Shown here: piece after piece, positions 6,244-63,914 of the stretch
Layout of the letters: each line of letters opens with the position of its first letter
How positions within the stretch are numbered: the first letter of the stretch is position 1
Source: Malacoraja senta
Lineage: Eukaryota
Assembly: GCA_038087875.1 (NCBI GenBank)
Contig: CM075988.1
Location: forward strand, 15,626,001-15,690,000
Direction: 5' to 3'
DNA length: 64,000 bases
The notes under the pieces: model-generated
Told to the model about the DNA's origin: nothing
The model's input: the letters and a program-made list of their open reading frames with translations, nothing else
Database searches by the model: none
Translations under genes and position numbers: made by a program

Positions 6244-6460
6244 GCACAAAAAGCTGGAGTTACTCAGTGGGTCAGGCAGCATTGCAGGAGAAATGTGACA
6301 TTTTGGGTTGGGACCTTTTTTTAGAGGTCTGAAGAAGGGTCCCAACCCTAAATGTCACCAATTCCTTTTCTCCTGTGATGCTGCCTGACCCGTTGAGTTC
6401 CTCCAGTTTTTTGTGTCTATCTTCGGTTTAAACCAGCATCTACAGTTCTTCCCTACACAT
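6244..6460. mobile_element. Penelope-derived inverted-repeat fragment with a degenerate hammerhead core (also ~14391-14607 and ~22524-22740)
   Basis: Two arms of the GCTGGAGTxACTCAGxGGGTCAGGCAGCAT repeat in opposite orientation, with central CTGAAGA-AGGGTCCCAACCC-TAAATGTC. Confidence 0.65.
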
Positions 6461-7869: not shown

Positions 7870-8189
7870 TTTAGTTTACTTTAGAGATACAGCGTGGAGT
7901 CAGCCCCGACGACCCACTGAGTCCACACCGACCAGCGATCCCCGCACATTAACACTACCCTACACACACTGGGGACAATTTTACATTTATACATTTATAC
8001 CAAGCCATTTAAACTATAAACCTGTATGTCTTTGGAATGTAGGTGGAAACCAAAAGGTCTCGGAGAAAACCCACACAGGTCACGGGGAGGTCGTACAAAC
8101 TCCGTATGGGCAAGCACCCGGTGTCATGATCGAACCCGGGTTTCTGGCATTGTAAGGCAGTAGCTCTACCGCTACGCCACCGTGCTGCC
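7870..8189 (-). mobile_element. V-SINE (HE1-like); paralogous copy ~16017-16336
   Basis: Same family as 2301-2606; the B-box GGGTTCGATC is on the minus strand. Confidence 0.85.
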
Positions 8190-13000: not shown

Positions 13001-13076
13001 AGGCAACGTTCTGCAGGATCTTCAGAACAAGCTCACAACTGTATTTGACGACTTCTGGCAGAATCTGAAGACCTAA
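10054..13076 (+). CDS. apoa4: Apolipoprotein A-IV-like, copy 2; coding exons 10054-10102, 10830-10956, 12167-13076; 361 aa
   Basis: Same exon structure and splice sites as copy 1, with intact frame. Amino-acid differences from copy 1 include M>T, E>K, Y>F, M>T and F>I. Confidence 0.93.
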
Positions 13077-21200: not shown

Positions 21201-21227
21201 AAGAACGAATTGAGAAGTAGAAAGTGA
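18202..21227 (+). CDS. apoa4: Apolipoprotein A-IV-like, copy 3; coding exons 18202-18250, 18978-19104, 20300-21227; 367 aa with extended C-terminus
   Basis: Same structure as copies 1 and 2. It ends ...NGSNFQQDLQNKVTTVWDDFWQNLKNELRSRK*, with GAA where copies 1 and 2 have TAA. Confidence 0.93.
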
Positions 21228-33200: not shown

Positions 33201-36200
33201 ATCTCTAAACTAAACTGAACTAAACTAAACAGACACTGTTCCTTGCTATGCCACTTCTGAATCCTACTCTTTGCTGCCTGCCTGTGAGACAATTTTCAAT
33301 CTGTGCTAGTACATTGCCCTCAATCCAGTGTAGTTGCCACTTACATGGAACTTTATCAGAGGCCATAAAAAAATCCAAACACACCACATCTGCTGGATAC
33401 TCTACCAGTTGCAGCCTCAAAACACTTCAGTAAATTTGTCATACATGATTTCTTTATCATAAATCCCTGATACCTTTGTTAATCCTAGCTGAGTTGCTGA
33501 GAACTTTGGGATATAAGGCAAAACATTAAGACTGAGATGAGGGAACATTTTTGCACTGATTTTGTGAAATTCACTACTATGTAGGCATGTTACAATACTT
33601 ACCTTCAGCGGCACTGCAATTCTGCCACTGGCCATGTGCGCGATTTGGGCGCCTTTAAGGGGGGGGCGGGGTTAAAACGCGGGTTTCTCCTACCTTGTCG
33701 TTGGAGTACAAGCGTTTGCTGAAAAATCGTTCCTATGGGCGTTTTGTGTATTTTTTATTTTTATTAAATCGACAATGTCAGCGCTGGAATTATTTTAAAA
33801 TCAGCTTCTGAAGCCGTCAACGCCGACAACGGGGACGGATTTCACACACGGGACAGGTAAACGAAAGTAGTTTATTTTAATGTATATAGGTGCTTCTTAA
33901 GAAGCCTTTAATTCACATTTTTTAATGCGAAACGGTGATTCTTTTCCCCGAACTAACGGCAGTATTTTTCATGCCGATACGGGGTTAAATTCACCGCAGA
34001 TCAACTTTCCAAATGATCGCATTCCAGAAAACCTCACTCGCAAGATTATTTAAATGGCCATTAATTTACAGGTATTAAACATTAAATTCCTTCCATTTGG
34101 CCTGTAAATCCATGACAATGAGATTTAAAAATTATGTTATATTGTGAATTCTTGTGTGAATGTTATTTCAACACTTAGGCTATTTAAAAATGTAAATCTA
34201 TTCTTAAGAAATTGATAGATGTTTAGATCTAGTAATTGAATTTTGTAATTAGCTACAATTAGGTAACTAACTAATTATATGCTTTAATTTCATGTCATCT
34301 AAGTAAGATTGTTTCATATTTGTTTCAGAATGCTTCAATCTATAATAACTGAAAATTTCTTTCAGTTCTCTTAATTTTTAAGAAAGTTATGGGCTTTTGA
34401 CTGTCCTCAATCACAGCTTTTGTGTTAAGTCAATGGAAAAGCGATAGGGAACAAAATGCTAATTTCCGAGTATGAAAATGGCCATAACGTTTTTAATACT
34501 GAAGATATGAAAGTGAATTAGGTGTCAAATTAAACTTGTTTTTATGCTTTATCTGATGGGATAAATTGCAGACTTTATTTTTTTAATCTCAAAATTTTGT
34601 AACATTGCTATACTATGGGTAGGGTAGATCACTGAATTTATTTAAGAAGGATATGGATTCACTTTTCAACACAATCGGCTAATAGTGGGTATGGGAAGAG
34701 AGTGGGAATATGGTGTTGAGACAGGAGATGAATCATAATAGTATTGAATGACAGAGAAAGCACAAGGGGCCTAATGGCCTACTCCAACAAATACCCATTA
34801 ACCTAACAACCATTTGCAGATCATTGCCTTCCACTCAATAACGGAAGTTGGCTCAATCCAGTCACTTTGCAAAGTCTGATCAATTTTTGTAGGTCGACCA
34901 ATTTAGATTTGATATGCCAACTTTTCAATTACATTTTCTTATTCAATATTTTTGCCATTTCTTTTGACAGGGTCCCAGCCCATACTAATAACCCCACTTC
35001 ACACCTGGTACTCACAGGTGTCGCTGGTCAACATTTGAACCATGGATCAGGTCTGCACCATCTTTGGCGTCGTTCTTCAATTCCTTGATGCATTCAGTCA
35101 AAGCATTTAGTAACTGATCTTCTTCATGGGCCAAAGAGCCTTTGGAGAGGAAGGAAATGGGAGGATTAGAGCAGGAGCAAATTTAAAAAAAATCGATATG
35201 ATTTAAACAGTCTGATATTATACAGCCTGATGAAGGGTCTCTAACCGAAACGTCACCTATGCCTTTTCTCCAGAGATGCTGAGTTACACCAGCATTCTGC
35301 GTCTAAATATATCAATAGTTTACTTCATGGACGTGGTTTGTTCTAGGTTAAGAATTTGCCCTGATAACAGAGACAAAGCCCTTTGCTTTACAAGGCTGTT
35401 TGTGTGTTAACATCATAGCATCAGTAATTCTGTACTTGTTCTATAATTCTGTATCTTAGCTACCGGACTGTCACATGCAGGTTACCTGAAGGTGTATTGA
35501 GAACAATTAATCTTCAGTGGAAGAGTTAACCACGCAGTATTATACTGATCACTTGCTAAATACCCATCTACTACATAACTGCTCGCTTAATAACTACCTG
35601 TTGTACACCCAACTGCTGTACTCCCAACTGTATTTACGTGTTAATTTAATACCAGGCAGCTGCACACGCACTTGTTATTTACTCAGTAACAGCCTATCTA
35701 GGACCAGTCTGTTGAACACTTGCCTGTTGTATATTGCCTGTTTAATCCCACCACTTATACTTACCTGTGTCACACCAATTTATGACTCGCCCACCTGTTA
35801 TATACCCCAGTTCATTTAACAATGACCAAATCCTCCTCTCATTCACCTACTCTTTGTTTTGCATCCATCTGTTATAAACTTGCCTGTTAAAGAATAACCA
35901 CTTGTACTTTTTCCAATGTACACACCAAGTTATTAAATACAAGCTCTCTGTACAACTGTCCGTGATACATTTTCCGGTCGTGTGCCTGGCTTGATGCATG
36001 ATACTGAAGGAGATCAAACTGATATCAGGGTTAGCTCGGTGCATTGAAGATGAAAAGATGGGCTCAGTAATTGCAATTGGGTATTGGAATACGGTGAAGA
36101 TGTGTGCTGAGTTTGTACCATTCTCAGAACCATTTCCTAATGGTTCTAAGAATGGTACAAAAACCTATCTTTAGATCAGGCACCACACCAAATAATCAGA

Positions 36201-36266
36201 GGAAAATTAAAGATACCAACCCGAGATTGTGAGGATGATTGAAATCACAGTTGTCTTGATTATCAT
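30224..36266 (-). CDS. Divergent apoA-IV-like apolipoprotein; coding exons 36266-36221, 35139-35016, 30746-30224; 230 aa (may be decaying)
   Basis: Kozak CCACCATG, signal-like MIIKTTVISIILTISG (phase 1), a 124-nt exon SLAHEEDQLLNALTECIKELKNDAKDGADLIHGSNVDQRHL (phase 2) aligning to apoA-IV exon 3, and a last exon with apo repeats (MSQNVEALTQRLTP, VRDVLGPF, LLSKLTP). GT-AG sites and phases splice into one open frame. Confidence 0.8.
31175..31297 (-). mobile_element. Penelope-derived fragment flanked by a 14-bp direct repeat
   Basis: TACATGGGAAATAT at 31161-31174 and 31298-31311. Similar fragments with 15-bp direct repeats occur at 41118-41202 (TGGACATAATTCAAA) and ~61252-61458 (TTAGGATAGCTTTGT). 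Confidence 0.7.
31428..31922 (+). mobile_element. V-SINE split by an antisense L2-type 3'-end insertion (~31588-31809)
   Basis: The SINE halves resume across the insert; AGGTTA is duplicated at 31582-31587 and 31810-31815; a (TTGAC)n tail lies on the minus strand. Confidence 0.7.
32919..33230 (+). mobile_element. V-SINE (HE1-like) inserted into an old minus-strand CR1 fragment (~32050-33500)
   Basis: GGCAGCATGGTGGCACAGTGG..GGGTTCGATCC boxes and a (CTAAA)n tail. Flanks translate to CR1 RT motifs (DVVCLDFFMASDKVP, IENCLTGRQQRVG). Confidence 0.85.
33582..34610. mobile_element. Non-autonomous DNA transposon with hAT-like TAG...CTA termini
   Basis: Imperfect TIRs TAGGCATGTTACAA and TTGTAACATTGCTA; direct repeat TACTATG at 33575-33581 and 34611-34617; no ORF. 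Confidence 0.75.
35227..35305 (+). mobile_element. Penelope-derived fragment with a canonical hammerhead core
   Basis: CTGATGA (35227-35233), AGGGTCTCTAACC, GAAA (35247-35250), C-GTC, then ACCTAT. Confidence 0.6.
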
Positions 36267-40649: not shown

Positions 40650-41889
40650 CTCACACATAGATGCATTATTTGGGGATTAATCTGTTGTTTAAAGTCCAAT
40701 GTTGTGCTTGCAATAGCGTGACTGTTAGTTAACCAAACACAAAGTGTGCTATGCATGTTTATAGAGTTAGAAACACAAAGGCATAATCAAAGTTCACATC
40801 CTGGAACAGAATGGTTCATTTCACCAGTCTCACAGCAAGTTCAATGAATTTCATGACTACATAATGGTTGATATAGGGCCAATAATTAGAACATTTTGAT
40901 CAGAGAGTACCAGTGTTAATTATGCTAGAGTTTTTAAAAACAATCTTACAGCAGTAAAATGAAGAAACTCAGAATTACTTTAAATGTGTTAAAATGTGGA
41001 AAGATATAGAAGATTTCATAGACAGGTTATTTCTCCTCCTTCAATCAGTCACCTATACACTGTAGGTGCTGGTGTAGAGCAGTTGGTCCAGGGACACCCA
41101 AATGGACATAATTCAAAGGGTTTCGGCCCAAAACGTTGCCTATTTCCTTCGCTCCATAGATGCTGCTGCACCCGCTAAGTTTCTCCAGCATTTTTGTGTA
41201 CCTGGACATAATTCAAATGTTACCCTAGTTCATAATAACATTACAGTCACTCCTGCTCTGGTCTTTACAATATTGGCTTACATTTCAAATGGATCGCTGG
41301 TGGAACTTGACCGCAATTAAGACAATTAAGACTCAAACCCAACTGTAGACTTCCTATACAGATTGAAGGATTCGGTTTAAATTGGACCATCCTCTTCAGC
41401 ATGACTCAGTCCTGTGGACCGAGGGGAGGAGACGTTTTCAGGGGTCCACTGTCAAAATAGTTTGTATTTCTTAATTGATTCATCATTCCATCCCACAATG
41501 TATCCGTCATTGTCATCTTCTTACAGTGAGTTTGGGTGTTGCGGGCAATCTATAACAGTTCAATGAGGGAGGAGGAGCTTGGCAAATATTTGTGGCCAAT
41601 TCCAACCTTGCCCAGGTTCTCAATTATCAGCCGAACAGGGAGAGAGAATGGTGGAAATACTCAACATTTGTGACCAGTTCTGATAAAAAAGATTATTGAC
41701 TTGAAATATGAACTTAATTTCTCTCCTCAGCTTCTGTGTACTTCTGGCATTTTCTATTTCTATCTGAGATTTCAAGCTTCATCTACTCATCTACTATGGC
41801 TCATGTTGTGCAGCCACATCATTGATTCCAAATGCAGAATTTAATTCACAAGAATAGCGTTTTTTTCCGACAATTAAGGGATAATGCAT

Positions 41890-44088
41890 TATTGGCCAAG
41901 ATTGACTGGCAATTAGTTCTAAAAGGGTTGACGGTGGATATGCAATGGAAGGCATTTAAAGACTGCATGGATGAACTACAAAAATTGTTCATCCCAGTTT
42001 GGCAAAAGAATAAATCAAGGAAGGTAGTGCATCCGTGGATAACAAGGGAAATCAGGGATAGTATCAAAGCAAAAGATGATGCGTACAAATTAGCCAGAAA
42101 AAGCAGCATACCAGAGGACTGGGAGAAATTCAGAGACCAGCAGAGGAGGACAAAGGGCTTAATTAGGAAAGGAAAAATAGATTATGAAAGGAAACTGGCA
42201 GGGAACATAAAAACTGACTGCAAAAGTTTTTATAGATATGTGAAGAGAAAGAGATTAGTTAAATCAAATGTAGGTCCCTTGCAGTCAGAAACAGGTGAAT
42301 TGATCATGGGGAACAAGGATATGGCAGACCAATTGAATAACTACTTTGGTTCCGTCTTCACTAAGGAAGACATAAATAATCTGCCGGAAATAGCAGGGGG
42401 CCGCGGGTCAAAGGAAATGGAGGAACTGAGTGAAATCCAGGTTAGTCGGGAAGTGGTGTTGGGTAAATTGAATGGATTAAAGGCTGATAAATCACCAGGG
42501 CCAGATAGGCTGCATCCCAGAGTACTTAAGGAAGTAGCTCCAGAAATAGTGGATGCATTAGTGATAATTTTTCAAAACTCTTTAGATTCTGGAGTAGTTC
42601 CTGAGGATTGGAGGGTAGCAAACGTAACCCCACTTTTTAAGAAGGGAGGGAGAGAGAAAACGGGGAATTACAGACCAGTTAGTCTAACATCGGTAGTGGG
42701 GAAACTGCTAGAGTCAGTTATTAAAGATGGGATAGCAGCACATTTGGAAAGTGGTGAAATCATTGGACAAAGTCAGCATGGATTTACGAAAGGTAAATCG
42801 TGTCTGACGAATCTTATAGAATTTTTCGAGGATGTAACTAGTAGAGTGGATAGGGGAGAACCAGTGGATGTGTTGTATCTGGACTTTCAGAAGGCTTTCG
42901 ACAAGGTACCACATAAGAGATTAGGATACAAACTTAAATCACACGGTATTGGGGGTTCAGTATTGATGTGGATAGAGAACTGGCTGGCAAACAGGAAGCA
43001 AAGAGTAGGAGTAAACGGGTCCTTTTCACAATGGCAGGCAGTGACTAGTGGGGTACCGCAAGGCTCAGTGCTGGGACCCCAGCTATTTACAATTTATATT
43101 AATGATCTGGACGAGGGAATTGAAAGCAACATCTCCAAGTTTGCGGATGACACTAAGCTGGGGGGCAGTGTTAGCTGTGAGGAGGATGCTAGGAGACTGC
43201 AAGGTGACTTGGATAGGCTGGGTGAGTGGGCAAATGTTTGGCAGATGCAGTATAATGTGGATAAATGTGAGGTTATCCACTTTGGTAGCAAAAACGGGAA
43301 GGCAGACTATTATCTAAATGGTGGCCGATTAGGAAATGGGGAGATGCAGCGAGACCTGGGTGTCATGGTACACCAGTCATTGAAAGTAGGCATGCAGGTG
43401 CAGCAGGCAGTGAAGAAAGCGAATGGTATGTTGGCCTTCATAGCAAGAGGATTTGAGTATAGGAGCAGGGAGGTTCTACTGCAGTTGTACAGGGTCTTGG
43501 TGAGACCACACCTGGAGTATTGCGTACAGTTTTGGTCTCCAAATCTGAGGAAGGACATTATAGCCATAGAGGGAGTGCAGAGAAGGTTCACCAGACTGAT
43601 TCCTGGGATGTCAGGACTTTCATATGAAGAAAGACTGGATAGACTTGGCTTATACTCGCTAGAATTTAGGAGATTGAGAGGGGATCTTATAGAAACGTAC
43701 AAAATTATTATGGGGTTGGACAGGCTAGATGCAGGAAGATTGTTCCCGATGTTGGGGAAGTCCAGGACAAGGGGTCACAGCTTAAGGATAAGGGGGAAAT
43801 CCTTTAAGACCGAGATGAGGAAAAACTTTTTCACACAGAGAGTGGTGAATCTCTGGAACTCTCTGCCACAGAGGGTAGTTGAGGCCAGTTCATTGGCTAT
43901 ATTTAAGAGGGAATTAGATTTGGCCCTTGTGGCTAAAGGGATCAGGGGGTATGGAGAGAAGGCAGGTACGGGATACTGAGTTGGATGATCAGCCATGATC
44001 GTATTGAATGGCGGTGCAGGCTCGAAGGGCCGAATGGCCTACTCCTGCACCTATTTTCTATGTATCTATGTATCTATGTATCTATGTA
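41890..44088 (+). mobile_element. 5'-truncated CR1/HER1-like LINE with an uninterrupted RT frame (ORF 41832-43979) and (TATCTATG)n tail
   Basis: KSPGPDRLHPRVLKE, GNYRPVSLTS, YLDFQKAFDKVPH, SGVPQGSVLGP, KFADDTKL and RPHLEYCVQFWSP; no stops over ~700 codons, so probably young. The first ~20 codons of the ORF are host sequence. Confidence 0.95.
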
Positions 44089-48795: not shown

Positions 48796-48962
48796 AGCGA
48801 ACTTTCAAAATTCTTGACCTAAAGTTCGCTCATGACACAAGAGCAAGCACCCATTGATCATTAGTCAACAGAATTTACCTATCTTAACCCAATCATACGT
48901 GTGTGTATATATACCTGGGCAACTTGTTTCACAGAAGCTCAAAGAAACTTGCACAGTTTGAG
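48796..48962 (+). promoter_or_regulatory. Putative promoter and non-coding exon 1 of the small apolipoprotein gene
   Basis: Inverted 10-mer AGCGAACTTT / AAAGTTCGCT (48796-48830) around TGACCT, CCAAT 48889-48893, TATATATA 48906-48913, and a strong donor GAG|GTAAGA at 48962/48963, mirroring the apoA-IV exon 1 layout. Confidence 0.6.
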
Positions 48963-50504
48963 GTAAGAGTTGCTTCTTTCTGCTTCACGGGCCAAGATGA
49001 GAGGTGTTATTTGAATCAACACACTTACTTATTATTTAGTCAATATTTTAATTCCATTTAAAAAATAGAGAATATGTGAATCACTGAGATTATTTGTGGT
49101 TACTCCTAACTGGAAATGTAACCATGTTTAGAAATGTCTATTAAAAGAGAGAAGAGAGAAATGAAAGGAAACAGAAAAAAATAACCCAAAGGGAACAACG
49201 TTGAAATATTGTGGCATTGACTAGTTTTATCAGCAGTTTTTGAAAACTAAAATTACAAAAAAAACAAATATGAATTACACACTTGATTTCAAGATGTGAT
49301 TCTGGTTTGGATCTGAATCTTCCATGTGATTCTATCTGTGCAGCGTCCCGATCTCTCACAGAAGTTTTAATAACTCAGACTTCATTCTATTAAACCAGAG
49401 GAAGAAATGTAGGTGTAGAGGGAAGGAACTTTAGGTTACAATGTCAACAGCTGGAGTTACGATAGACCAAAATATGTTGGCAAAATTAGGTGATTTGCAT
49501 TGGAGAGATTTTAAATTCTGCAATGCCTGTTGTTACAGCTTTACATGGATACATTTCTAGACCTTTTACTTTGTGCATTGCAAGAAATATATATAACAAA
49601 TTATCAATCAGCTTTCCATCTCCTCCCTTAGAATTTGTATTGAAACCAGGATTATAAAATCAGGTAGAGATTTCTTATCAGGTGACCCTTCTTATGTTAT
49701 ACCACAAATTCAAGCTTGTTCACTGTCCACAAGTCTTTGCGTATCTATACGCAAAAATGTACATGTCCATTGATATATGTCTACTTTCTTGCATTGGCAG
49801 CATGGCTATTCAAGGATCAATTGTCCCTGGAGCTTAAAAGCTAGGAATACTAAAAGGCTCCATTCAACTTATTTTCTCTTCTCATTGTTAATGTGTGGAC
49901 ATGGGTTCAAACGTATAGACTTAGATGTCTCCAAAGCATCTAAAAGCGATAACGTGCTTTTTTAATGTACGGTTTCTGTTCTAGAAAACTCAACCGCTCA
50001 TTGTTGCACTACATGGCTATTTAGGGGTTGATAACTAGATATCGAGACTTAGCAATGTTGGTGTTGGTCAAAAATCTGGTGATAACAAGCTTGCCCTTTT
50101 GCAAAATAGTTTCAGGAACCTTTTACCTGCACCATCGAGGACCGAGGGCTTCTCAATGTAACTTCTTACCATCCAGCTCTGTGGCAGTCTCTCAGTACAG
50201 CAGTGGAGTAGCAGTCTAATTTTTTATTGGTAAATCTCTGACTCAAAGCAAACAATCAACCAACTAAGCCATGGCGGACATTTACCTACCTGTTAATTTT
50301 ACCATCTTACACTCTTTAACTATTTTGACTTCTCTAAAAATTGGGTACATGCTGCCTCTGGCTCTCAGTTCCCACATCCCTGTTGTCACTTTAGAATCAT
50401 TTTAGTCAATAACATTTACTTTTATCTGAATTAGATCCAATGGCAGAAAAATCTCAACGTTCATCGAGAGAAACAATTTTTGTATTTTCTGGATGCATTT
50501 CAAG

Positions 50505-50747
50505 GTAGCACAGTGGTGTTGTGGTGGAGCTGCTGCCTTACAGCGCCAGACACTCGGGTTCGATTCTGACAATGGAGTTTGTACATTCTCCCTGTGAGCC
50601 TGTGGGGCTTCACCGGGTGCTCCGGTTTCTTCCCACATTCCAAAAACGTAGGTTAATTGGTCACGGTAAAATTATAAATTGTCCTTTAGAGAGTAGGATA
50701 ATAGTGTACAGGGCCTGTTTCCGTGCTGTATCTATAAAGTCTAAAAC
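50505..50747 (+). mobile_element. Internally deleted V-SINE
   Basis: GGTAGCACAGTGG..GCTGCCTTACAGCGCCAGA..GGGTTCGATTC followed by the family core. Confidence 0.75.
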
Positions 50748-51439
50748 TGATCGGCCCATGCTGATAATTTAGCTAACCTCAGGTCAGCCTAGGGAGGTGT
50801 GCAATCAGCCAGAATTAATGCTGATTATTTCTGCTATAGTTTAGTTAAGAAATACAGCATGGAAACAGGTTCAAAATTATTAAATAATGCGATAGAATGC
50901 TTCAAGTACAGAATAAAATGTTTTTAAATATATATATATATATAATCTATATGTTTTTAAATCAGTTTTAAATTCATATGGCTCTCATTGGAAGAAGTGG
51001 TGGTGCTATTTGAGATTACTTTGACCCATTTTTGAACAATGTCGGAAACCAAGGCGAGAATGGAAATGAGAGAGATAATTTAAAGGTTTGGCTCATGCTT
51101 GAGGAGTGAATGGAAATGTCACCGTATCCACTTTTGCCATCACAAGTGCAGAGATCAAAGTCCACCAATCCATTGCGTAATATTGTTTGCAGTTGAGTAA
51201 CTTAGTTTTCCTCTGGAGTAAAGTGCTATAAAGACAATTCCAGAGCAGCTTCCAGTCATTCTGGAAATTTGACCAACAATTAAACAGCCGACTTTCGCGG
51301 TTTATTCCAATCTCTTGCGACTTTCGCGGACTTTCGTGCTTATGACAGCCTAGTGCTTATTCACTAACTCAACAACATTGTTAACTAACTGCAACTTATC
51401 TAATTCAATCCAGAAAACAGAAAGGTGAAAATAATCAAA

Positions 51440-54400
51440 ATGAAGATTCAAATCACAGCTCTGGTTCTTTTGGTTGCAACACTGGCTGGTATGTATATGA
51501 TTCTTAGGGACACATAGGCCTGCAGATGCTGGAATCTTGTGCAAAATACAAACAGCTGGAGGAACTTAGCAGCTCAAGCAACATCTGTAGAGGGAAATAT
51601 ACAGACAATGTTTCAGGTCGGGACACGTCTAGCCCCACTTTTCCCCTCATCTCCTTCTATCAGTTAGCTCCCCTCTACTTCTCCACTCTGAAGGGTCCTG
51701 ACCCAAAACATTGTCTGACCAGTTCCCTCCACAGATGCTGCCTGACTCACTTAGGTCCTCCTGCAGTTTGTTTTTGTATACGACTCGTATATTCCTCAGA
51801 GATAAAGATAACAAATTGCATTATTTCCTCAGGTACTTATTATCTAAAATGAAAAACTTTGAGCACTGGGGAATGAAACTGTGTCCACCTTTTATACCCA
51901 ATTAGCTCGGAACTCTTGTCAATTCTGCATAGCTCAGTTTAGAAATGAGAGTCCCTCCGCACTGCCTTATCAAACTCTCCCACAGCAGTTAAAGCTGAAG
52001 CTTGACTGCACTCCTAGCAAACATTTCCTTTTCCATTAATAACAATTTCAATGAAAAAAAAAATGTTGGGAGTTCCATTAGTTCAATATTATTTACTAAT
52101 AAGAGATTGTTTGCTCCCATCCAAAGTCCCATCTTCATACACTCTGAAATACTATAACTTGGGGATTAATTTGAGTCACTGTCAAATAACGGCATTTTGG
52201 AGCCGGAGCTATTAGTACTCATCCTTATTCTTCCATAACCTGAATTACCTGTCATTGTTAAAATCATCCCTTTTATCATGGTGAGACAATTGGCTAAGAT
52301 AAAATATCGTTTGAATGGAGTTTGGATTTTTGCTGTATCTCCTGACTTAGTTTGTATATTTTCATACTTTGACATGCACAGGCATTATCTTTTTTAGATG
52401 CTCAGTTCTAATCTCTGTATCTTCCATCTCTAATTTACAGCATGTGATGCTGCCCCTGTGGAAGAAACCAGTCCCACACTTGGGCCTATTGATACTATAA
52501 AACAATATGCACAGCAACTGGTTGAGACTGTAAGATATTATCTTGAAGATCTGGGTACCAATCACATTATTCAATTCGGCAGGTAATGACAACATTTTTA
52601 TGATGTTAAAGAAGTTAGTATAAAAGCAGCATCTGATGGCAACTGTGAAGAGAAATCTTCATGTAACTGATTTTATAATTCTGTGGGCGGCGCGACTTTC
52701 GTCTGCAGCGGCCTCTGCAGTCCGTCTGTCTTTTTATTATTTTTGTCTTGTTTTTATGTAGTTTTTTATTATTTTTTTTTGTCGGGGTATGTGTGTGGGG
52801 GGGGGGAGGTGGGGGTGGGGGTGGGGGTGGGGGTGGGGGGGGGGAACTTTGAAATCTTTCCGCTGCACGGGAGACCCGACCTTTTCTTTGTCGGGTCTCC
52901 GTTGTCGTTGGGGCTGGGCAACGTGGAGCGGCCTCCAGCAGGAACGACCTGGGGCTCCAGTTGCGGAGCTGCGGACTACTCACCGTCGCGGGGCTGGCCG
53001 AGTCCGGAGCGGGTGGAGCTGTGGTGGAGACAATCGCTGCTGCTACCCGACCGCCGGAGATTCGGAGGCTACAACCGCGGGTCTGGCGGACGGCAACACC
53101 GTAAGCCCGCGGGTCCCCTGGTGGGAGACCGCTTTTCGGGGCTTCCGCAGCGGCGACTTCTCCCGCCCGAATTGCGGGGTTGAAGAGCACCTGGAGCGGG
53201 GCTTTACATCGTCCCCCCGCGCGGCTTGGAATGGCCACCGGACTTTGCGGGCGCACGCCGGGGCTCTAACACCAAGACCCGGTGCGCAACCTTGCATCAC
53301 CCGGCGTGGCTTTAATGGCTGCGGGACAATCACCATCGCCCGCCGGGGGCTTTGACTTTGACTCTGACATCGGGGGGGGGAGTGCAGTGGAGAGATACGT
53401 GTTTTTGCCTTCCATCACAGCGCTGTGATGGATGTATGTGTAAATTGTGTTGTGTCTCAGGTCTTCTTCGTTTTGTATTGTATGGCTGCAGAAACGACAT
53501 TTCGTTTGGACCTCAAGGGGTCCAAATGACAAATTTGTCCAAAAAGACAAATAAATTGAATTGAAATTGAAATTGAATTGAATAATTCTGTACTGCTCAA
53601 GTAATTAATAGCAGGTTATCTAAAGAGCGAAGCTTTTGTCAGGCGCAAGTTGTGAAAGAACACTCACGATGCGTAGAGAATGTAGAGAAACAAGTTTATT
53701 TATTAGCAAGTCTGCAGAGTTGGGTGTCTCCCCTGTCAAGACACACCGAGGATCGGGATGACTTCCATCTTTATACATTTAATGTGTATCATTGTCACAC
53801 CCTCATCCCTCCCCATTGTGCTTCTTCCAATCATAACATAAAGCCCACATTCCCACGAGAACGTCCTGGAACGTCCACCCGACGTCAAAGACACCTCCCA
53901 TATCATGCATCGCATGTGCATTTAAATGAGACATCTTGTCATAGTGGGTGTGTGTACATATTCATGTAAGTTCATTGCCCATGCGCACTGAGTGTTTCTT
54001 CTGACCTTTACCCTAGTTCTATGCTGGGCTGTTGCTATCTTCTCTGTTCTCATCCTTGAAAAGTCACCATTTGTACTTGTCCTTTACTCCCCTTATTCTC
54101 CGTTCTATACTCCCTACTATACTCCCTACTAGACAATGGGTTCTTGTCTAAATCAACTATACCTATTAACCCATTCCTCACAATCCACACTTTTACTTTT
54201 GCTACTGCAATCTTTGATTTAGACTATCTGCCCCTTCTCTAATGCTAGCAGCAGAATCTTCGCCTCCTTATCTTCCTCTCGCTGGTCATACTGTGTTTTA
54301 AATTCGATAGACAGGGAGGTGAGACCTGCTAGGGCTCTCGACACTGACCCATCAGGAGCAGTGTTGTTGGGGATGAAGGTGCAACATTGTTCCTCAAACA

Positions 54401-57400
54401 TTACACACACCCCTCCCTTCTCAGCCAGTAGCATGTCTAAGGCCATGCGATTTTGCCACGCCATTAGGCTGGTATCTGTTAGTTGTTCCGCTAATCCTTC
54501 AACTGCATCTCGAGTGTAATTTATAAAGCGTTGTTGATTGTAGTATAGGTAGTTGATCCAGTCCACATTTTTATTAAGTGTGGACCACCAGAAGAGTATG
54601 GACTCAAAGCCCGCAGCTATCTGGTTTCTGGCTTTGAATTAATCGGGTACCCCTCTTGGCACCCCTATCGCATCTATATATATATGTGTGTGTCGAATGA
54701 TCCTCTCACCCCTCTCTTCTGTCGTCGGCTTCCTTCATTGAGTTCTACAGCATGTTCTACTGCTATGGTGAAGGGCATCATCAGTTGTGTGAGGGTACAG
54801 GTTCCCGTCCATGACCCTGGTAACCGGGGCCACAGGGTATTCTCCCCGCACCACCACCAGACATCGGCTCTACTGACTATCTGCTTTCTCAGCCAGGAGC
54901 TTTTGAACAGTGGCCCCTGTTCCTCAGCCGTTATGTTATACGTCTGATTGCAGTTCAGCACCTTCCCCATTTCCTGTCCATCTGGGTTATATCTGGTATA
55001 GCACTCAAATCCCTCCTCCCCAAGGGGAGTTCTAAATGGAGGAGGTTGTGGGTCTGTCCTTCGGCCCTTTTTATTGTTGTTGCTAGCCGGGAATAGGTAA
55101 TGATAACTCTGGCAGGTCGCATCCTTTGGTAGGATGGGATTCGTGAATAGCTGTAGTATACATGGCATAGCCCCAGGTGTCCTATCCCAATTCAAGGAAA
55201 ATGGTTCTGGAACCAGCTGAGGCTTAGCTCCGGCACAGGCGTAGCAATTGGTGTGTTGCATACTCCTGGCCGTGTACATCATCCAGGCAAGCCAGGTGTT
55301 GGCTCCCTTTCCTCCTGTAGGTATTCCCTCCTCATATAATTGCCTTAATTCTGTTTCTCCTGCTACTATCATTATCTTCAAATCCTTAGGCTCATTCTCC
55401 CTGTTCTATCTGCACATCCTTTCACTTTCCTGCATTTGAACACTTTGTATGCTTACATAGTTGGGTAACCACCCAACACACGACCCATCAACACGAAATC
55501 TTCATTTTTCCCGCGGGTTCTTGTTAAATATTAAAGTCAATGGTTCCTCTCCTTTGCGCACAGTCCACGGGCTGATATTGTTTGGTGGGGCCTCCACAGG
55601 ACCCTTAAATCGGCTTGCGTGTGTCCACCCTTTTTCTTTTGTTCGTACTGCTGTCTCGGTGATTAGTAACACCAGGTAGGGTCCAGTCCACTTAGGTTGC
55701 AGCTTTTCTTCCTTCCATGATGTTACAAGATCCCAGTCCCCCGCTTTCACAGAATGGATTGGAAGTCGAGATGGGGACTCTGTGCCAGCAGCCCCTTGGT
55801 TCTTAATTCTGTAATAGAACGAGATACTGCCAGTAAATAGTTCCTTAGGAATACATCATTCCCTTGTATTTGTTGGGACCCCTTCTATCGTTCCTAAATA
55901 ATAAAGACCTAACTTGTTCAACCTTTCTCTGTGTCTTAGTTGCTGAAACCCGGTCAACATTCTAATTGATCTCCTCTGTACTCTCTCTATTTTGTTGACA
56001 TCCTTCCTATAATTATACCTACCAAAATTATACACCATACTCCACAATTGACCTCACCAATACCTTGTACAATTTAACATTACAACCCAACTTCTATACA
56101 CAATGCTCTGATTTATAAAGGCCAACACACCAAAATCTTTCTTTACCATCCTATCTTCATGAAATTCCACCTTCAGGGAACCATGCACAGTTATTCCAAG
56201 ATCCCTCTATTCAACTTCATTCCTCAATTCACAATCATTTACCATGTACATTCAATTTTGATTTGTCCTGCCAAGATGTATCATCTCATACTTATCAACA
56301 TTAAACCCATCTGTCATGTTTCAACCCATTCTTCCAAATGACCTAAATCTCTCTGTACACTTTTTAAAATCTACTTCATTATTCACAACACCCCCCATCT
56401 TAGTATCATCTACATACTTATTCATCTATTTTACCACACCAACATCCAGATTATTGATTCACATGACAAACAACAGTGGACCCAACACACATCCCGAGGT
56501 ACCCTTCTAGTCACTTACCTCCAACCTGACAAACATCCATCCACCATTGCTCTCTGACATCTCCCATACAGCCTATTTTTAATCCATCTTGCTATTCCTT
56601 ACTAACCCTTCTTAACCAACCTTATTTCCTTATTGAACCTTGTCAAAGGCCTTACTGAAGTTCATCTAGTCAACATCCATCACTTTACCCTCATCAATTT
56701 CCCTAATAACCTTTTTTAAAAAATTCAAGATTAGTCAAACATCACAATCACAAATCCATGCTAATTCTTCCTAATCCTACCCTATTCTTATATATTGTCT
56801 TAAGTATGCTTTCCATTATTTTGCCCACCACTGATGTCAAACAACGTTCTTGTTCAAACTCTACTCTTTTCTCACATCTCTTGTCCTCCTGTTCACTTAC
56901 CTCAGGGCTATTATCTATTCATACCTGCGGGACAGCCCTCAGGTATTATTGAATTGGTACCAGGTATATCAACCTTCTACCTGAACATCGGTCGGTAGTT
57001 TAGAAAACTCATACATACACCTTGTCTTCAGGTTTAAAGGGTCCTTCCTCCTGGTCCACCTCCAACAGCTTTTACTTTTCCTGTTCATAAATAGACTTGT
57101 ATATTAAACAAATCTTATTTATATTAACCTTCAATGTTCCATTTATTCTTTCCACCATGCCTGTGACTGCAGGTGTTACATACCCAAATGTGTATTTTAC
57201 TCTAAGGGTCTCTATCGCCAACTTAGCTACTCCCTAAATGAAAACAATCCGTTGTCAAAGCTGATTTCTGTAGGTCTACCAAACCTCTTAATTACCTTAT
57301 TCATCATAAACGACACTACAGGGCTTATACCTAATCTAGTCTGAACTATATCCTGCCTTTTCCCGAGGTTATCATACTCTGTCCTACATTCTGAAGTATT

Positions 57401-60273
57401 TTTTTTTTTAAATCTCTCTCTCTCTCTCTTACATCGCTTGTTACTTATGGAACAATATCAACAAATCCTCCTTTAAATCCCTTTCTCTCTTGGGGACCCC
57501 AGTCCTGTTAGGGCTTATATCCAGATTAATTTCACTCCTGATAGGACTTTTTGAGGAAACGTACCCCAAAGACATTCATTATTGGCATGTAATTCTCTGG
57601 CCCTGCTTGGTTCCATCATAGGACTCACTTAGGTCCATTGTTTATTGACAACAATTGCTCCTGCTGGTTTGCAAGTCTTTTTCCTATCTTTGCGATATTT
57701 CTCGACCGCAGAGACCAACTGTTCGCTGAATCTGCTTGACTTTAAGAAGAATGACATCCACCACAGTAGTTCATAATATAATGTTCATCAATCAACTCTC
57801 CACCTTTTCAGCTGGTTTTCCAGATAGGCTGCTGGATTACATTGTCTGAGGGCCTGCCATGCCCTCTGCCTGTTCATAAATATAATGTTCATCAATCAAC
57901 ACTCCACCTTTTCAGCTGGTTTTCCAGATAGGCTATTTGCCTTTCCTTCTGTATCTCCCATTGTTCCTTGGGGTTCCTCTTAAGTGGGTAACATTGTCTG
58001 AGGGTCTGCCATACCCTCTGCCTGACTGTGTCAAACAGTATGCCATTGCTTGTTACATTGTTCGCATCAGTTTATACCATCCATCTTCAGTAGTTCTGTC
58101 ACTTTAGTGGTTCCTATCACTTTTACCAACAGTGCCTTCAAATCTTCCATGATCAATAATCGTCCCACGTTCTCCTCCTCCAAAGCCCTAATCCATTTCC
58201 TCCCCCATCAGGGATATAGGGTGAGGTATTTTTTAGCCCTTTCAGTTTATGGGTGCCCCAAGGGATAATCCGTGTCTGTCCTTCTCTTTTCTCTTTAAAG
58301 CAGTCTCATCACTTTATCCCAATGCTTCCAACTTTAATCCTTTCTGGTATGCCTTCTTTCTAATTCTAAACTCAATTTCTTGCTTCTCAAATATTCTAGC
58401 CTCCTTGCAAAAATCTTCCACTGACTCCTCCTGCTTTACTTTCACGCCTGTCGTTTTTCTACTTCTGTTATCTTCTAACTGCCTCTCTCTCCTTTCTTTC
58501 TAAACTTGAATGTTTACCAATTAACTTATTTCCAATTATTTCAATCCATATTCACCACTATTTTAAATGTCCAATTCCTAGCACTAGTAACAATTTTCCA
58601 AATTATCTTTACTGACTAGAAATCTAAAAGTATCAGAAAAACCAAAAGCTGGTTTCACAACTTCCCCTTCTTACGAGGATACAAACATTAATCGTTATCT
58701 TACAGCTGTTCGGCGCCTTTCACCATGACCTGATTTATTTAAAGGAACATACACCTACCTCCAGTGAACATTTTTGATTTTAATAAAACTTACTTACTTA
58801 CTCTTATACAATAAACAAAATAATTATCACAAATATAAACTTCCTCTTTCATTCCAAACCGGTTTTTACACACAAATCACATTCGTTCCATTCTTACTTC
58901 AATAAATGCAACATCTTTTACATGTATTAAAACTCAATATAACAGAATCAAATCATTTTTGTCTTCCAATTCCCTGGGTATTTCTCTGCCCCCAGAGGCT
59001 CAGCATTCGCCCCAACGGACTATCAGGCAGAATGCTGGGGTCGGGCTTACCGCCCTTCCCCTCCCTTGTGGGCTTTCCGTTTTCATTGCCCATCCTCCCG
59101 ATCGGAATTCCCCCCGATCTATTTTCCCGCCTTTCCTGCCTTGCCCGTACAGACCCCTGAATTCTTCAGGGCGGTATCCACAAGGTCTTATCAATCGCCC
59201 GAGTAGTACTTAATTGTCAGTTTTCTTACCCGGGTCTTGTGCACAAGAATCACTCGATTTGGCTCCTTCGCGAATTTCCCCCGATCTTCCTCCGGATCGG
59301 AACTCCCACTTGTTTCTCTAATCTCTGGTCCTGGATATCACTCGCTCAAACTGCTGACGACAATCTAGGGGTCTGGGACCGTTGAAATCAATGGGGTGCA
59401 CCGTCCCTTCTTCCGTATACTGTCGCCAGCTGGCCGGAGTGGGGATCCCGAGGACGAGCCCCCAAGCTGTCAGGCGCAAGTTGTGAAAGAACACTCACGA
59501 TGCGTAGAGAATGTAGAGAAACAAGTTTATTTATTAGCAAGTCTGCAGAGTTGGGTGTCTCCCCTGTCAAGACACACCGAGGATCGGGATGACTTCCATC
59601 TTTATACATTTAATGTGTATCATTGTCACACCCTCATCCCTCCCCATTGTGCTTCTTCCAATCATAACATAAAGCCCACATTCCCACGAGAACGTCCTGG
59701 AACGTCCACCCGACGTCAAAGACACCTCCCATATCATGCATCGCATGTGCATTTAAATGAGACATCTTGTCATAGTGGGTGTGTGTACATATTCATGTAA
59801 GTTCATTGCCCATGCGCACTGAGTGTTTCTTCTGACCTTTACCCTAGTTCTATGCTGGGCTGTTGCTATCTTCTCTGTTCTCATCCTTGAAAAGTCACCA
59901 TTTGTACTTGTCCTTTACTCCCCTTATTCTCCGTTCTATACTCCCTACTATACTCCCTACTAGACAATGGGTTCTTGTCTAAATCAACTATACCTATTAA
60001 CCCATTCCTCACACTTTGCCTTCAGTTTCTTCAAATACATTCAAGAAGGGTTAGAGATGTAAAGTAAATCTCCCTCTTATGTTCACAACAAATATTCCGA
60101 ACATCACGGATATATCCATACGGTCCCTTGTATATTGCAATAATAATTGACTTTTATTTTTCAGGGACTGGATTTCGACTCTAATAGATAAGTTGCCTGA
60201 ATTAATGCAAGCTAAACGAGAGGAACTATCTCAGGCATTTCAGCAGCTTACTGGACAAGATAGTGAACAATAA
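51440..60273 (+). CDS. Small exchangeable apolipoprotein (apoC-III/apoC-I-like); coding exons 51440-51488, 52441-52582, 60165-60273; 99 aa
   Basis: MKIQITALVLLVATLA|ACDAAPVEETSPTLGPIDTIKQYAQQLVETVRYYLEDLGTNHIIQFG|RDWISTLIDKLPELMQAKREELSQAFQQLTGQDSEQ*. Signal peptide, intron phases 1 and 2 as in apo genes, GT-AG sites with pyrimidine tracts, amphipathic helices, R|xW at the exon 3/4 junction as in apoC-I and apoC-III, and AATAAA at 60319-60324. Confidence 0.82.
52685..53581 (+). mobile_element. GC/CpG-rich non-autonomous non-LTR element with a Rex1-type stem-loop and (ATTGAA)n tail
   Basis: 10-bp TSD ATAATTCTGT at 52675-52684 and 53582-53591; 3' stem-loop TTTGGACCTC..GGGGTCCAAA, AATAAA and a tandem tail; internal (GGGGGT)n tract. 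Confidence 0.75.
53637..54182 (-). repeat. 3' LTR (546 bp)
   Basis: No difference seen by eye from 59468-60013; preceded on the minus strand by the purine-rich AAAAGTAAAAGTGTGGAT (PPT-like). Confidence 0.95.
54219..55440 (-). pseudogene. env: Retroviral env relic (gamma-type TM, HERV-I/P(b)-like)
   Basis: CYAC (CxxC) in SU, furin site RQKR, DAIGVPRGVPD*FKARNQIAAGFESILFWW, immunosuppressive domain QNRMALDMLLAEKGGVC and CX6CC. There is an (AT)n frameshift at ~54675-54685, an in-frame TAA at ~54640, and no membrane anchor. Confidence 0.9.
55502..55900 (-). pseudogene. pol: Integrase C-terminus (GPY/F domain), HERV-I-like
   Basis: VFLRNYLLAVSRSITELRTKGLLAQSP..SVKAGDWDLVTSWKEEKLQPKWTGPYLVLLITETAVRTKEKGWTHASRFK. 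Confidence 0.85.
55901..56840 (-). mobile_element. CR1 RT fragment inside the ERV, in the same sense as the provirus
   Basis: YRKDVNKIERVQRRSIRMLTGFQQLRHRERLNKLGLY and other decayed CR1 RT motifs; no 3' tail or TSD visible. Confidence 0.8.
56930..57300 (-). pseudogene. pol: Second, deleted integrase core and C-terminus (fish ERV1/epsilon-like)
   Basis: KVIKRFGRPTEISFDNG..GMVERINGTLKVNINKIC..GPFKPEDKVYV*VF..PTDVQVEG*YTWY. Confidence 0.7.
59445..59464 (-). other. Primer-binding site, tRNA-Pro-like
   Basis: TGGGGGCTCGTCC-TC-GGGAT, 3 nt inside the 5' LTR; this equals the Pro PBS TGGGGGCTCGTCCGGGAT with a 2-nt insertion. Confidence 0.85.
59468..60013 (-). repeat. 5' LTR (546 bp)
   Basis: Direct repeat of 53637-54182, with TATAAA and AATAAA on the minus strand. 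Confidence 0.95.
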
Positions 60274-60424
60274 AAGTTCATTATTTGTATTCTGTGACAT
60301 TTATGCTTTACTCAAAAAAATAAAAGTCTGAAAATTCCACGGCTTTCTAATTTGTATGGGCGGCAGAGTGGTGTAACAGTTGTAGAAAAAGGTCGTGACT
60401 GTCTACCCTATCCTTGCCTCGCAT

Positions 60425-60625: not shown

Positions 60626-62983
60626 AATAATTGAAACATAAATGTAAATCCAAGTTTAGTGGATGGTAACTCTTGAGACAAGTATCCAACACTGAGCACC
60701 AATTATAAAGATGGAATTTAATCCACCGTCCTAGCAAATCTACATGATTGAGCGTTTTCTCTGAGTGGAAATCATTTGGGGCATGTTAAAACAAGACCTT
60801 TCCCGATGCAATGGAAAATGGACCAATTAACGTCAATTTACCGATGGGTAGGAAAGAAGTTAGCCAGGGAGCAAACCTGGTGATGTGTGCAAGAATATTA
60901 TTTGTACTAGTAAAGCTTTCAGAGTGTCAGTGTGCTTTTTAAATGAGGGTATCGTTCAAATGTAGACTGATTCTGCCCTTATCCACCATCCAAATATATC
61001 TTACAGAAGGTCATTGAACATGGCCAGTGAACCATGATTACTTTCCACCCCAGAAGTAAAATGCTAACTGTGGTGCCCGTACTACATTGGAACTGATATC
61101 CTCTCAGCACCCGAATGAATTCATTTAATGTGTAGGAGTTTCACTCAATAACTTAAAAACCCATATGTATTGTATGTTGTTAAAAAAATAAGAATAATAA
61201 AAAGGTTTAAACAAGAAAGTATTTAGAAGCAGTGTTTAGGATAGCTTTGTTTAAGAAGGAACTGCTGATGCTGGAAAATCAAAGGTAGACAAAAATGCTG
61301 GAGAAACTCAGCGGGTGAGGCAGCATCTTTGGAGCGAAGGAAATAGGCAATGTTTCAGGTTGAAACCCTTCTTCATGTCGGAAATGGTCCAGGTGTATTT
61401 GAGTGCCAGATGGAAGTTAGTGTCGGAAATGGTCCAGGTGTATAATTTAGGTTAATGGTTAGGATAGCTTTGTATATTTTCCCATTCATGTCTCATGTAG
61501 ATTATTTTATGTTATTATTAAATTTACTTCCACCATTGTCTTCACACCAGCTCATATTTCACAGTATTATTTTTGTTTTCCTCATTTCCACAAATCATCC
61601 CCATACCTTCTTTAATGATAACAGCCACTGTTAATCAACTCACTTGAGGCAACTGAAGTATTTTATCATGATAATACTTTATTGTCACATGTACTTGGTA
61701 CAGTGAAATTCTTTGTTTTGCACACAATACACAGAGTATGCAAAGAGTTGCCACGTATAGGGCGCTGACAAAGTTACAAAAGTATTCAATACAGCCCGAT
61801 GGTCCCTCTTCGGTCTCGGTCATCACCATTCTAACAGATTTCTTGCGCAATATTATTCACACGGAATCAAAGTATGAAACGGAATTTTGAATAAGCTGAA
61901 ATGTGGCCTGGTCATAGGCACAATAGCCAAGATGGGACTTAATCGCACTTTTTATTAAAGCAAAGGTGGAGGCTCTAGTTTATGCATAATCAGTATTGAG
62001 TTATTATGTCTGCCAATATTTTGTGCTTAAATCTCTGAAGTTGGGCTTGAATCCACCATCCTTCTGGCTCGGAGATTAAAGTGCTACCACAGAACCAAGA
62101 CTGTCACCTAAATTGACAGAGGGCTAGGGTAGGCTGGAGATTAATACTTTTTCTCAACTCCTAAACCCACTTGCTGCAAGTGAGATTCTCTAAGATCAGT
62201 CATAGGTACCTTGCTATTGGCTATTATTCCCCTAAACTACCAGCAATTTCATCACAACTTTCCTCCATTAAAAAACACGTGTTGTCATCCTTCATAGTTG
62301 CTCATCTCTGAGTATCTGTCGTTCAATAAATGAACTTCCTGAACCACTTCATTAGATTTCAGACAGCATCACATTGCAGTGTCAGTTATTGTCTATTCTG
62401 TTTAAAAAAAAAATTGAAACATGATCAATTCATTTAACATTATCAATTAATCTGTGCATCAAATTCCTCAAAACAAAAGACACGATTAGAATTACTGAAT
62501 GTAGCAATGATCAAGGTATAAGGAAGCAGAATGGCAATTGTTAATCGGTGGAGAAGGAATGGTCCTGGAGTAATTTTCACACTTGTACACAGGTTGCCAT
62601 TTCACTGCAAGACGAAGAAGTGCCCAAGCGACTCCTGAAGTGAGAAGATCCTTTGTCAAGTGACTCTTCCATAAATTGAATTGAAAGTCCCCTGAAGAAC
62701 TGATCAACGGATGCAATGTTTCAAGTGCAATCCATATAAAAACACTTTACAGCTGAACAAGGTCCTCCACGAGCAGGAAAGTGGTTCCTTTGCTTTGGCC
62801 AACTTAATAGCTACTGTTCATCTGTAAGACAGTTAGTTCAATTAACAAATTGAATTTAAAAATAGCTTTAAGTTGTTAAAATTAAGTGAGAAGATGGAAA
62901 ATATAGGTTTGTCTTATTTTGATGCAGCAAGCAGGAATACAAAGAACCACCCTGACATCAGCAGCCCAGGTCATCCAACTTCA

Positions 62984-63914
62984 TTACTCTTCATTGAAGT
63001 CTCCTTCCTCTACTTGTCTTTCATACACGAAAAGATCAGCCATGTCCTCGTCCATATGTTCACTCATTTCTGTCAGGATCACATTGAGCGCCTGTTCAAG
63101 ATAAACAGAGGACAATCATTAATTCAATGGTGCCTCACTGACAATCTCACTGCAGGGTGGTGGACAGTGTTACACCATAGAATTCTTATTTTCTCCTCAT
63201 AACATTCAATGCACATACAACGTCAAAAAGCCCGTAGCGTGTCAGGAGGCACAAGAGACTGCAGATGTTGGAATCTGGAGCAAAAATCAAACCGCTGAAG
63301 GAACTCAGTGGGTCAGGCAGTATTTGTAGGCGGAAACAGAGAGATAATGCTTTGGTTTCACACTGAAGGGTTCCGACCTAAAATGTTGTCAATCCACAGA
63401 TGCTGCCCAGCACAATAAGCTTCTTAGCGGTTTGTTGTTACTTTAACTTGTCAAGCCAGTTCAAAGTGACTATGTGTCCATGTATAATCAGGGTGGGAAC
63501 TGAACTAAGTCTGGAGTAGATTATTGGAAATCCGGTTTGAAGCTCGAGGGATTTTTATTGTAAATAACTTGTGCTGTATTTGTTCTAAGGGTATTTGGGG
63601 ACGTAGTGTTGAGCAGCTAGCTTGTTGCTGCTAATGGATGCTGGAAGAGCAAATTGTTTTTTTTTTAATCCCCTGCCTTGATAATTGTAAAAATAATAAA
63701 TGAAAATTATTATTGAGAAAAATAATGGCTTTACAGAAGGGGATTGATATAAAATCCCAAAAGGAATTACTGGGAATCAGTTGTAAAAAATATGGACTCA
63801 CCACATCAGTAAAAGCCTTCACATGGTAATCCTTCAGTGCCACATTGTCAATGGTTGTACAATTGTAATGGCTAATGCTGAGGTACTGGTCCAAAAGGAT
63901 GTCAAGCATTGAAC
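62984..63914 (-). CDS. Last two coding exons of an unidentified gene (63914-63802, 63091-62984); the 5' part lies beyond the window
   Basis: Acceptor CCTTTTTCAG|, a 113-nt exon SMLDILLDQYLSISHYNCTTIDNVALKDYHVKAFTDV, donor |GTGAGT (phase 0), acceptor TTTATCTTGAACAG|, then ALNVILTEMSEHMDEDMADLFVYERQVEEGDFNEE*. Phases match and the frame is open. Confidence 0.7.

Follow-up and report, generated by a model that had tools for sequence, protein, structure and literature searches.

The window analysed here, 64,000 nucleotides of contig CM075988.1 of the skate Malacoraja senta (positions 15,626,001 to 15,690,000), carries a four-exon gene whose predicted 99-residue product is a short exchangeable apolipoprotein. 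The gene is likely a new member of the apolipoprotein family, probably apoC-III, and would contradict the published history, in which a survey found that apoC-III arose only in land animals. We place the probability that it is an apoC-III orthologue at about 0.6, because APOC3 is the sole short apolipoprotein of the human 11q23 cluster. The gene is likely a positional orthologue of apoC-III, not a proven member.

Gene structure and predicted product

The features of the gene, all on the plus strand, were as follows.
48906 to 48913: TATA-like box TATATATA, closing a short dinucleotide repeat; putative promoter element
48935 to 48962: predicted non-coding exon 1 (start approximate), followed by a strong donor after 48962
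51414 to 51488: exon 2, with 26 nucleotides, then an ATG at 51440 and 49 coding nucleotides (most of the signal peptide), phase 1; the reading of its 5' part agrees with the longer little-skate isoforms described below
52441 to 52582: exon 3, 142 nucleotides, with the predicted cleavage site after residue 20 and the first amphipathic helix, phase 2
60165 to 60340: exon 4 (end approximate), with 109 coding nucleotides, the stop codon at 60271 to 60273 and a 3' untranslated region with AATAAA at 60319 to 60324

The coding exons (51440-51488, 49 nucleotides; 52441-52582, 142 nucleotides; 60165-60273, 109 nucleotides) have GT-AG ends and phases 1 and 2, and the AG of the exon-2 acceptor ends at 51413. 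Joined, they comprise 300 nucleotides, or 99 codons and a stop, as proposed in an earlier reading made without database searches (hereafter the sequence-only reading). The TATA-like box, the donor and the AATAAA signal of that reading were likewise located.

When exon 3 was compared with 1.84 billion representatives, a single match was obtained at E values up to 0.001: P0001, a 99-residue protein encoded by an uninterrupted frame in a 1,505-nucleotide public contig. The two proteins aligned without gaps over their full length, with 69 of 99 residues identical. Because this alignment covers all 99 positions and runs through both coding junctions, and a little-skate RefSeq model also matches (see below), we conclude that the gene is real and spliced as predicted in skates. 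A search of sequencing runs with exon 4 matched two runs, both of DNA because their contigs run through the introns; no RNA run was listed for M. senta, making this search uninformative on expression. By analogy, expression would be expected in liver and intestine.

The four-exon layout and the intron phases (1 and 2) match those of the local apoA-IV genes. The general plan of APOA/C/E genes, namely four exons with the signal peptide in exon 2, a common block in exon 3 and a variable exon 4 (PMC6854765), is that of the small gene.

The protein also has the predicted signal peptide and amphipathic helices attributed to it by the sequence-only reading. Residues 5-16 are hydrophobic, and small residues at positions -3 and -1 point to cleavage after residue 20. 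The predicted mature chain has 79 residues, an isoelectric point of 4.4 and a net charge of -7. The negative charge speaks against its being a cationic antimicrobial peptide. Across residues 33-92, the mean hydrophobic moment was reached by 1 of 2000 shuffles. A structure model of P0001, of low confidence (pLDDT, the predicted local distance difference test, 57), is all helix, with helices at 32-56, 63-71 and 74-97. Finally, 15 of 16 positions on the hydrophobic face are hydrophobic throughout the three skate proteins (the predicted protein and the two relatives).

Chromosomal context

In human, Clptm1 adjoins the APOE/C1/C4/C2 cluster and Tomm40l adjoins APOA2. The positions of the human apolipoprotein clusters were taken from PMC6854765.

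The counterpart of the small gene in the little skate, Leucoraja erinacea, is LOC129712369. It lies on a sequence of 26,912,430 bp, and supplementary information (SI) Table 8 of the little-skate genome paper (PMC10115646) ends chromosome Leri_32C at exactly 26,912,430. In the supplement text of that paper searched by term, all five human-11q23-24 genes found with coordinates (Pafah1b2, Sorl1, Gramd1b, Siae and Rnf214) are on Leri_32C; Pknox2 and Bace1 are present with ids only. The id of Apoa4-1 (LE04042) falls among those of the 11q23-24 genes. The 15 other rows from LE0401x to LE0406x comprise eight 11q23-24 genes, two Robo paralogues, three other paralogue labels and two unknowns. Clptm1 is on Leri_38C and Tomm40l on Leri_24C. 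Zpr1, Sik3, Bud13, Sidt2, Pcsk7, Cep164 and Dscaml1 were not found in the supplement text searched by term; among the 19q13 genes sought, the same text yielded no Nectin2, Relb, Clasrp or Tomm40 proper. At the level of the chromosome, the gene therefore lies where apoC-III would be expected, in an apoA-IV cluster on an 11q23-type chromosome.

Zebrafish apoA-IV genes are described as syntenic with human APOE, and coelacanth apoE and apoA-IV as sharing one cluster (PMC4348566). Because of the zebrafish arrangement, a fish gene cannot be identified by its linkage to apoA-IV alone. An apoC-III gene would be expected between apoA-IV (head-to-head) and apoA-I (tail-to-tail). The sequence-only reading had placed the small gene head-to-head with an apoA-IV-like gene; this holds for a short, divergent gene of 230 codons, but the three full-length apoA-IV copies have the same orientation as the small gene. 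The window ends 3.7 kb downstream.

Affinities of the protein

A profile search led to LOC129712369, annotated in RefSeq as an "uncharacterized protein" with three isoforms (XP_055516705-7), of which XP_055516707.1 shares 67 of 99 residues with the predicted protein, with one gap. Only skate proteins were reached (2 of 184 candidates). The gene had been called hidden, and its little-skate protein is indeed uncharacterized, but RefSeq does model the little-skate gene.

In length, the predicted mature chain equals human apoC-III (79 residues) and differs from apoC-I (57 residues). Mature apoC-III is described as having 79 residues, C-terminal tryptophans and Thr74 (PMC7399058); the small protein has a single tryptophan, and a threonine at mature position 73. 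ApoC-I is a 57-residue chain described as the most basic apolipoprotein (PMC7399058, PMC8301479). As a basic 57-residue product of the APOE cluster, it differs from the skate protein, with its 79 residues, isoelectric point of 4.4 and location on a chromosome other than that of Clptm1. The lipase-activating motif of apoC-II, Tyr63/Ile66/Asp69/Gln70 (PMC8301479), is absent from all three skate proteins.

In the ESM Atlas, the apoC-III cluster ranked first for P0001 (0.92, followed by C-II at 0.90, A-II at 0.90 and C-I at 0.88) and for the skate relative P0004 (0.91, followed by C-I at 0.90 and A-II at 0.89). The top five families were all short apolipoproteins. The residues at the exon 3/4 junction, R-D-W in the window, had been put forward as resembling apoC-III, whose human junction is R-G-W. 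This argument is weak: the junction is R-E-W in both P0001 and LOC129712369, as it is in human apoC-I. It is absent, as R-(D/E)-W, from the local apoA-IV copies. Overall, sequence places the predicted protein as a short apolipoprotein of the apoC type, and no finer.

Weighing the identity of the gene

Several observations weigh against assignment to apoC-III. When the skate relatives were scored against the Pfam profiles named by the sequence-only reading, ApoC-I was listed for all three (18.3-20.4 bits, E 4.6e-4 to 2.1e-3, below the curated cut-off of 28.3 bits) and ApoA-II for one (P0001 residues 5-95, 15.2 bits, E 0.031, below the cut-off of 27 bits), whereas Apo-CIII was listed for none at E values up to 10. 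The Apo-CIII profile is presumably based on amniotes, and HMMER filters discard weak matches. Scanned singly, neither exon 3 nor exon 4 of the window matched a Pfam family; exon 3 alone had no PDB match and no scored match among longer proteins. Searched against the PDB, the skate small proteins matched human apoC-I at E 1.4e-4 to 8e-4, but none of apoC-III, apoA-II, apoC-II and apoA-IV; apoC-III, apoA-II and apoC-II have PDB entries. Profile searches thus weakly favour apoC-I. The lead of apoC-III over the next family in the Atlas, 0.01-0.02, is too small to decide, and the skate protein has a single tryptophan where apoC-III is described as having several C-terminal tryptophans. The matches retrieved included no relatives from sharks, chimaeras, coelacanth or amphibians. 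Between the small gene and the end of the window, 3.7 kb on, there was no sign of an apoA-I exon. Synteny is chromosome-level only: the supplement text did not reveal where on Leri_32C the cluster lies, nor its neighbours apoA-I, ZPR1 and SIK3. Moreover, that supplement also places Ercc1, which is a 19q13 gene in human, on Leri_32C, leaving no clean split. What stands of the sequence-only reading is the gene, its class and the apoC-III candidate, which synteny at the level of the chromosome, not visible from the window, favours.

Three other identities were considered. The protein may be a short apolipoprotein specific to cartilaginous fish or skates, born in the cluster (for example, as a truncated copy of a local apoA-IV gene), that would bind lipoproteins as the apoC proteins do and is orthologous to none of them. 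We consider this unlikely, although the relatives retrieved all came from skates, the first coding exon matches those of the local apoA-IV copies in its length of 49 nucleotides, and the cluster yields divergent shortened copies, as the 230-residue neighbour illustrates. The mature chains also aligned with local apoA-IV better than shuffles did, the score being reached by 20, 1 and 4 of 500 shuffles. However, the best sequence matches of the small protein are to apoC-I, with apoA-IV unlisted in its PDB searches, the R-(D/E)-W junction is missing from local apoA-IV, and the leading five Atlas families are all short apolipoproteins. That the searches did not reach sharks is explained by the fast evolution of the protein.

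An apoC-I orthologue whose last exon is extended, and which either stayed in the apoA-IV cluster or was transferred to it, much as teleost apoA-IV lies in the APOE cluster, would explain why apoC-I was the best profile match in every Pfam and PDB search that gave a family member, the R-E-W junction of the skate relatives and the presence of Ercc1 on Leri_32C; in fishes and coelacanth, apoE genes are found clustered with apoA-IV (PMC4348566). It is nevertheless improbable given the 11q23-24 character of Leri_32C, with Clptm1 on Leri_38C, and the acidic 79-residue chain as opposed to the basic 57-residue one of apoC-I; scores below the family cut-off are, in addition, what would be expected between sister paralogues. 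An apoA-II orthologue, that is, a structural protein of high-density lipoprotein (HDL), is very improbable. The Pfam ApoA-II match on P0001 (E 0.031), Atlas scores of 0.89-0.90 and a similar length speak for it, but that match occurred in one of three relatives, no PDB apoA-II was matched, and Tomm40l, which adjoins APOA2 in human, is on Leri_24C. Orthology to apoC-III remains the reading we prefer.

Fast evolution of the small protein

Divergence is concentrated in residues 27-78, of which 24 of 52 are identical to each of the two relatives; in the flanks, the proportions are 45/47 (P0001) and 43/47 (LOC129712369). The 230-residue neighbour shares 95% of its residues with the Amblyraja orthologue and 90% with P0005, although these species pairs differ from those compared for the small gene.

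Two DNA runs of one study, X1 and X2, both from organism A, whose genome is nearly identical to that of the window, allowed a closer comparison. The window differed from X1 at 8 of 2486 positions (records 1-7) and from X2 at 36 of 2377 (records 9-14), mostly non-coding positions. In coding exon 4, the same seven listed differences (within 60166-60222) occurred in X1 and X2, and all seven change the residue. This excess was significant relative to non-coding sites of the same X1 contig (Fisher P 5e-4) and to the adjacent intron alone (0.03); 1 of 11 X1 and 5 of 15 X2 differences on the exon-4 contig fell outside the rows listed and were counted as non-coding. The absence of silent changes in exon 4 was not by itself significant (P 0.18). 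When P0001 and P0004 are used for polarisation, the window carries the derived state at four of the seven sites and organism A at two; at the remaining site all four sequences differ. Exon 3 was matched exactly by an X2 contig of half depth. These data suggest that the small protein is likely under diversifying selection; alternatively, a very recent paralogue may be the source of the X1/X2 differences. Because evolution is fast and amino-acid-changing, a BLAST search with human queries would miss the gene.

An endogenous retrovirus in intron 3

Intron 3 is interrupted by one large element.
53637 to 60013, minus strand: endogenous retrovirus, antisense to the gene, identified by long terminal repeats (LTRs), a target-site duplication and Pfam matches

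The retrovirus reported in the sequence-only reading was confirmed by two identical 546-bp LTRs (53637-54182 and 59468-60013), a 4-bp target-site duplication and Pfam matches to env (frames 54222-54638 and 54677-55405) and to a C-terminal piece of integrase (55505-55855). A primer-binding site, which we take to be that for tRNA-Pro, lies near 59452-59464. The longest minus-strand frame encodes 243 residues, and the upstream retroviral frames scanned had no Pfam match. Intron 3, about 1.2 kb without the insertion, measures 7.6 kb with it. The exon-4 contigs of X1 and X2 begin to fit at 60014, preceded by 51 letters not matched to the LTR. Because of this, the insertion site appears to be empty in both runs, the joint itself not being among the rows listed. 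Many related copies occur in X1 and X2, and the element looks like a very young, non-autonomous retrovirus of class-I type. It is a young passenger and no part of the gene's design.

The gene might be real in skates with the M. senta allele silenced or mis-spliced by the retrovirus, which would be compatible with any identity. The element ends 151 nucleotides before the exon-4 acceptor and contains four sense-strand AATAAA hexamers, and only DNA runs were matched for exon 4, no RNA run being listed for M. senta (itself uninformative on expression). Silencing is nevertheless quite improbable: the element is antisense, the LTR polyadenylation hexamers are on the minus strand only, and the reading frame and splice sites are intact.

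Neighbouring genes and other elements

The apoA-IV-type genes of the window were as follows.
1906 to 21227, plus strand: three tandem canonical apoA-IV genes of 361, 361 and 367 residues, with ATG codons at 1906, 10054 and 18202 and coding exons of 49/127/910-928 nucleotides
30224 to 36266, minus strand: divergent apoA-IV-like gene of 230 residues, head-to-head with the small gene, with coding exons 36266-36221, 35139-35016 and 30746-30224

The canonical genes lie in 8.15-kb units (window 1022-22780) that are about 98.5% identical, each with an intact four-exon gene, copy 3 having a longer C-terminus. Their best PDB match was apoA-IV, at 184 bits versus 99 for apoA-I. The array is a recent triplication, or partly an assembly effect; zebrafish apoA-IVb.1-3 provide a parallel. 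An apoA-IV profile search retained 5 of 5760 candidates, with no little-skate apoA-IV or apoA-I among them. Four shark species (P0006-P0009) have divergent apoA-IV-like proteins of 306-327 residues that are 30-38% identical to the window apoA-IV; two are labelled uncharacterized. Odd apoA-IV paralogues thus occur in sharks too.

The 230-residue gene, 12.6 kb from the small gene and the only apoA-IV-type gene head-to-head with it, shares 218 of 230 residues with Amblyraja radiata XP_032905635.1 (LOC116991269, uncharacterized). Its best PDB match was apoA-IV (36 bits; apoA-I, 18; apoE, 11), and its middle is Asn/His-rich and helix-breaking. Because weak apoA-IV similarity extends beyond its stop to 30044, its sequence suggests an old truncation. 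The idea of a fresh pseudogene was rejected because A. radiata and P0005 have the same 230-residue frame and stop. Apart from those of the five genes, no apolipoprotein exon 3 was found in the window. DR1/HNF4-like matches in the stretch separating the small gene from its head-to-head neighbour appeared only at two mismatches, with no control, and were given no weight.

Between the two head-to-head genes, a 717-residue open frame (41826-43979) encodes a reverse transcriptase (Pfam RVT_1) of a long interspersed nuclear element, presumably of CR1 type. On the minus strand, a 232-residue frame (399-1094) resembles retroelement ORF1 (open reading frame 1)/FP-like protein, with weak Pfam matches only. 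Also on that strand, 62495-63115 contains two exon-like stretches with acceptor sites, stops in every frame, and no Pfam or PDB match.

Proposed function, origin and significance

By analogy, the protein would be synthesized in liver and gut and secreted, and its amphipathic helices would enter the surface layer of HDL and of triglyceride-rich particles. By crowding out lipoprotein lipase there, it may then slow particle breakdown, as inferred from apoC-I and apoC-III. Displacement of the lipase was reportedly described by Larsson in 2013. Both apoC-I and apoC-III inhibit this lipase (PMC7399058, PMC8301479). Cartilaginous fish are reported to lack apoC-II and apoE (PMC6854765), which makes direct displacement of the lipase a plausible route.

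ApoC-III and apoC-I may be copies of one short ancestral gene, produced by the early vertebrate genome duplications, with the skate protein retaining ancestral apoC-I-like features. A broader proposal combines apoC-III at the first jawed vertebrates; apoC-I and apoC-III as genome-duplication sisters of an ancestral short apolipoprotein, the reverse of the published long-to-short history; and strong diversifying selection on the skate helices, which would suggest that the protein also serves as a target or decoy at the lipoprotein surface in a race between host and pathogen. We regard this combination as speculative and, as a whole, doubtful.

A conserved short apolipoprotein in skate, of any identity, contradicts the published history. 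Were it a true apoC-III orthologue, a protein that is a major regulator of triglycerides and a drug target would date back to the base of jawed vertebrates, and its absence in teleosts would be a loss. The protein also makes it possible to test if lipase inhibition is older than the activator apoC-II, given when the latter is reported to have arisen. Apart from unrelated papers, full-text searches on apoC-III or apoC-type proteins of cartilaginous fish or coelacanth brought up PMC6854765 alone, most subscription journals being outside their coverage; no paper was found that mentions LOC129712369. The text of the elephant-shark complementary DNA paper has no apolipoprotein passage, and its supplements may list short apolipoproteins.

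Comparison with known systems

Human APOC3 (PF05778; 11q23.3) resembles the small gene in its four exons, amphipathic helices, 79-residue mature chain (predicted here), first rank in the Atlas and position beside an apoA-IV-type gene on an 11q23-type chromosome. Coding exons are 49/142/109 nucleotides in the window and about 55/124/121 in APOC3. It differs in that the small protein has one tryptophan and no Pfam or PDB match to apoC-III, the canonical apoA-IV copies are same-strand in skate, and an apoA-I neighbour was not seen in the window. ApoC-I (PF04691; PDB 6DVU, 1IOJ) is the best sequence match, ungapped over residues 29-78, and shares R-E-W with the skate relatives. The skate protein exceeds apoC-I by about 20 residues, is acidic, scores under the family cut-off and is not encoded on the Clptm1 chromosome.

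Lamprey LAL1 is likewise a short apolipoprotein of an early vertebrate lineage, near the APOC group (PMC7431520). LAL1 is linked to tom40, whereas the skate gene is linked to apoA-IV-type genes. Closest is L. erinacea LOC129712369: although unnamed in RefSeq and identical at only 24 of 52 residues in 27-78, it is the same gene, colinear with that of the window and identical at 67 of 99 residues, including 43 of the 47 outside that region.

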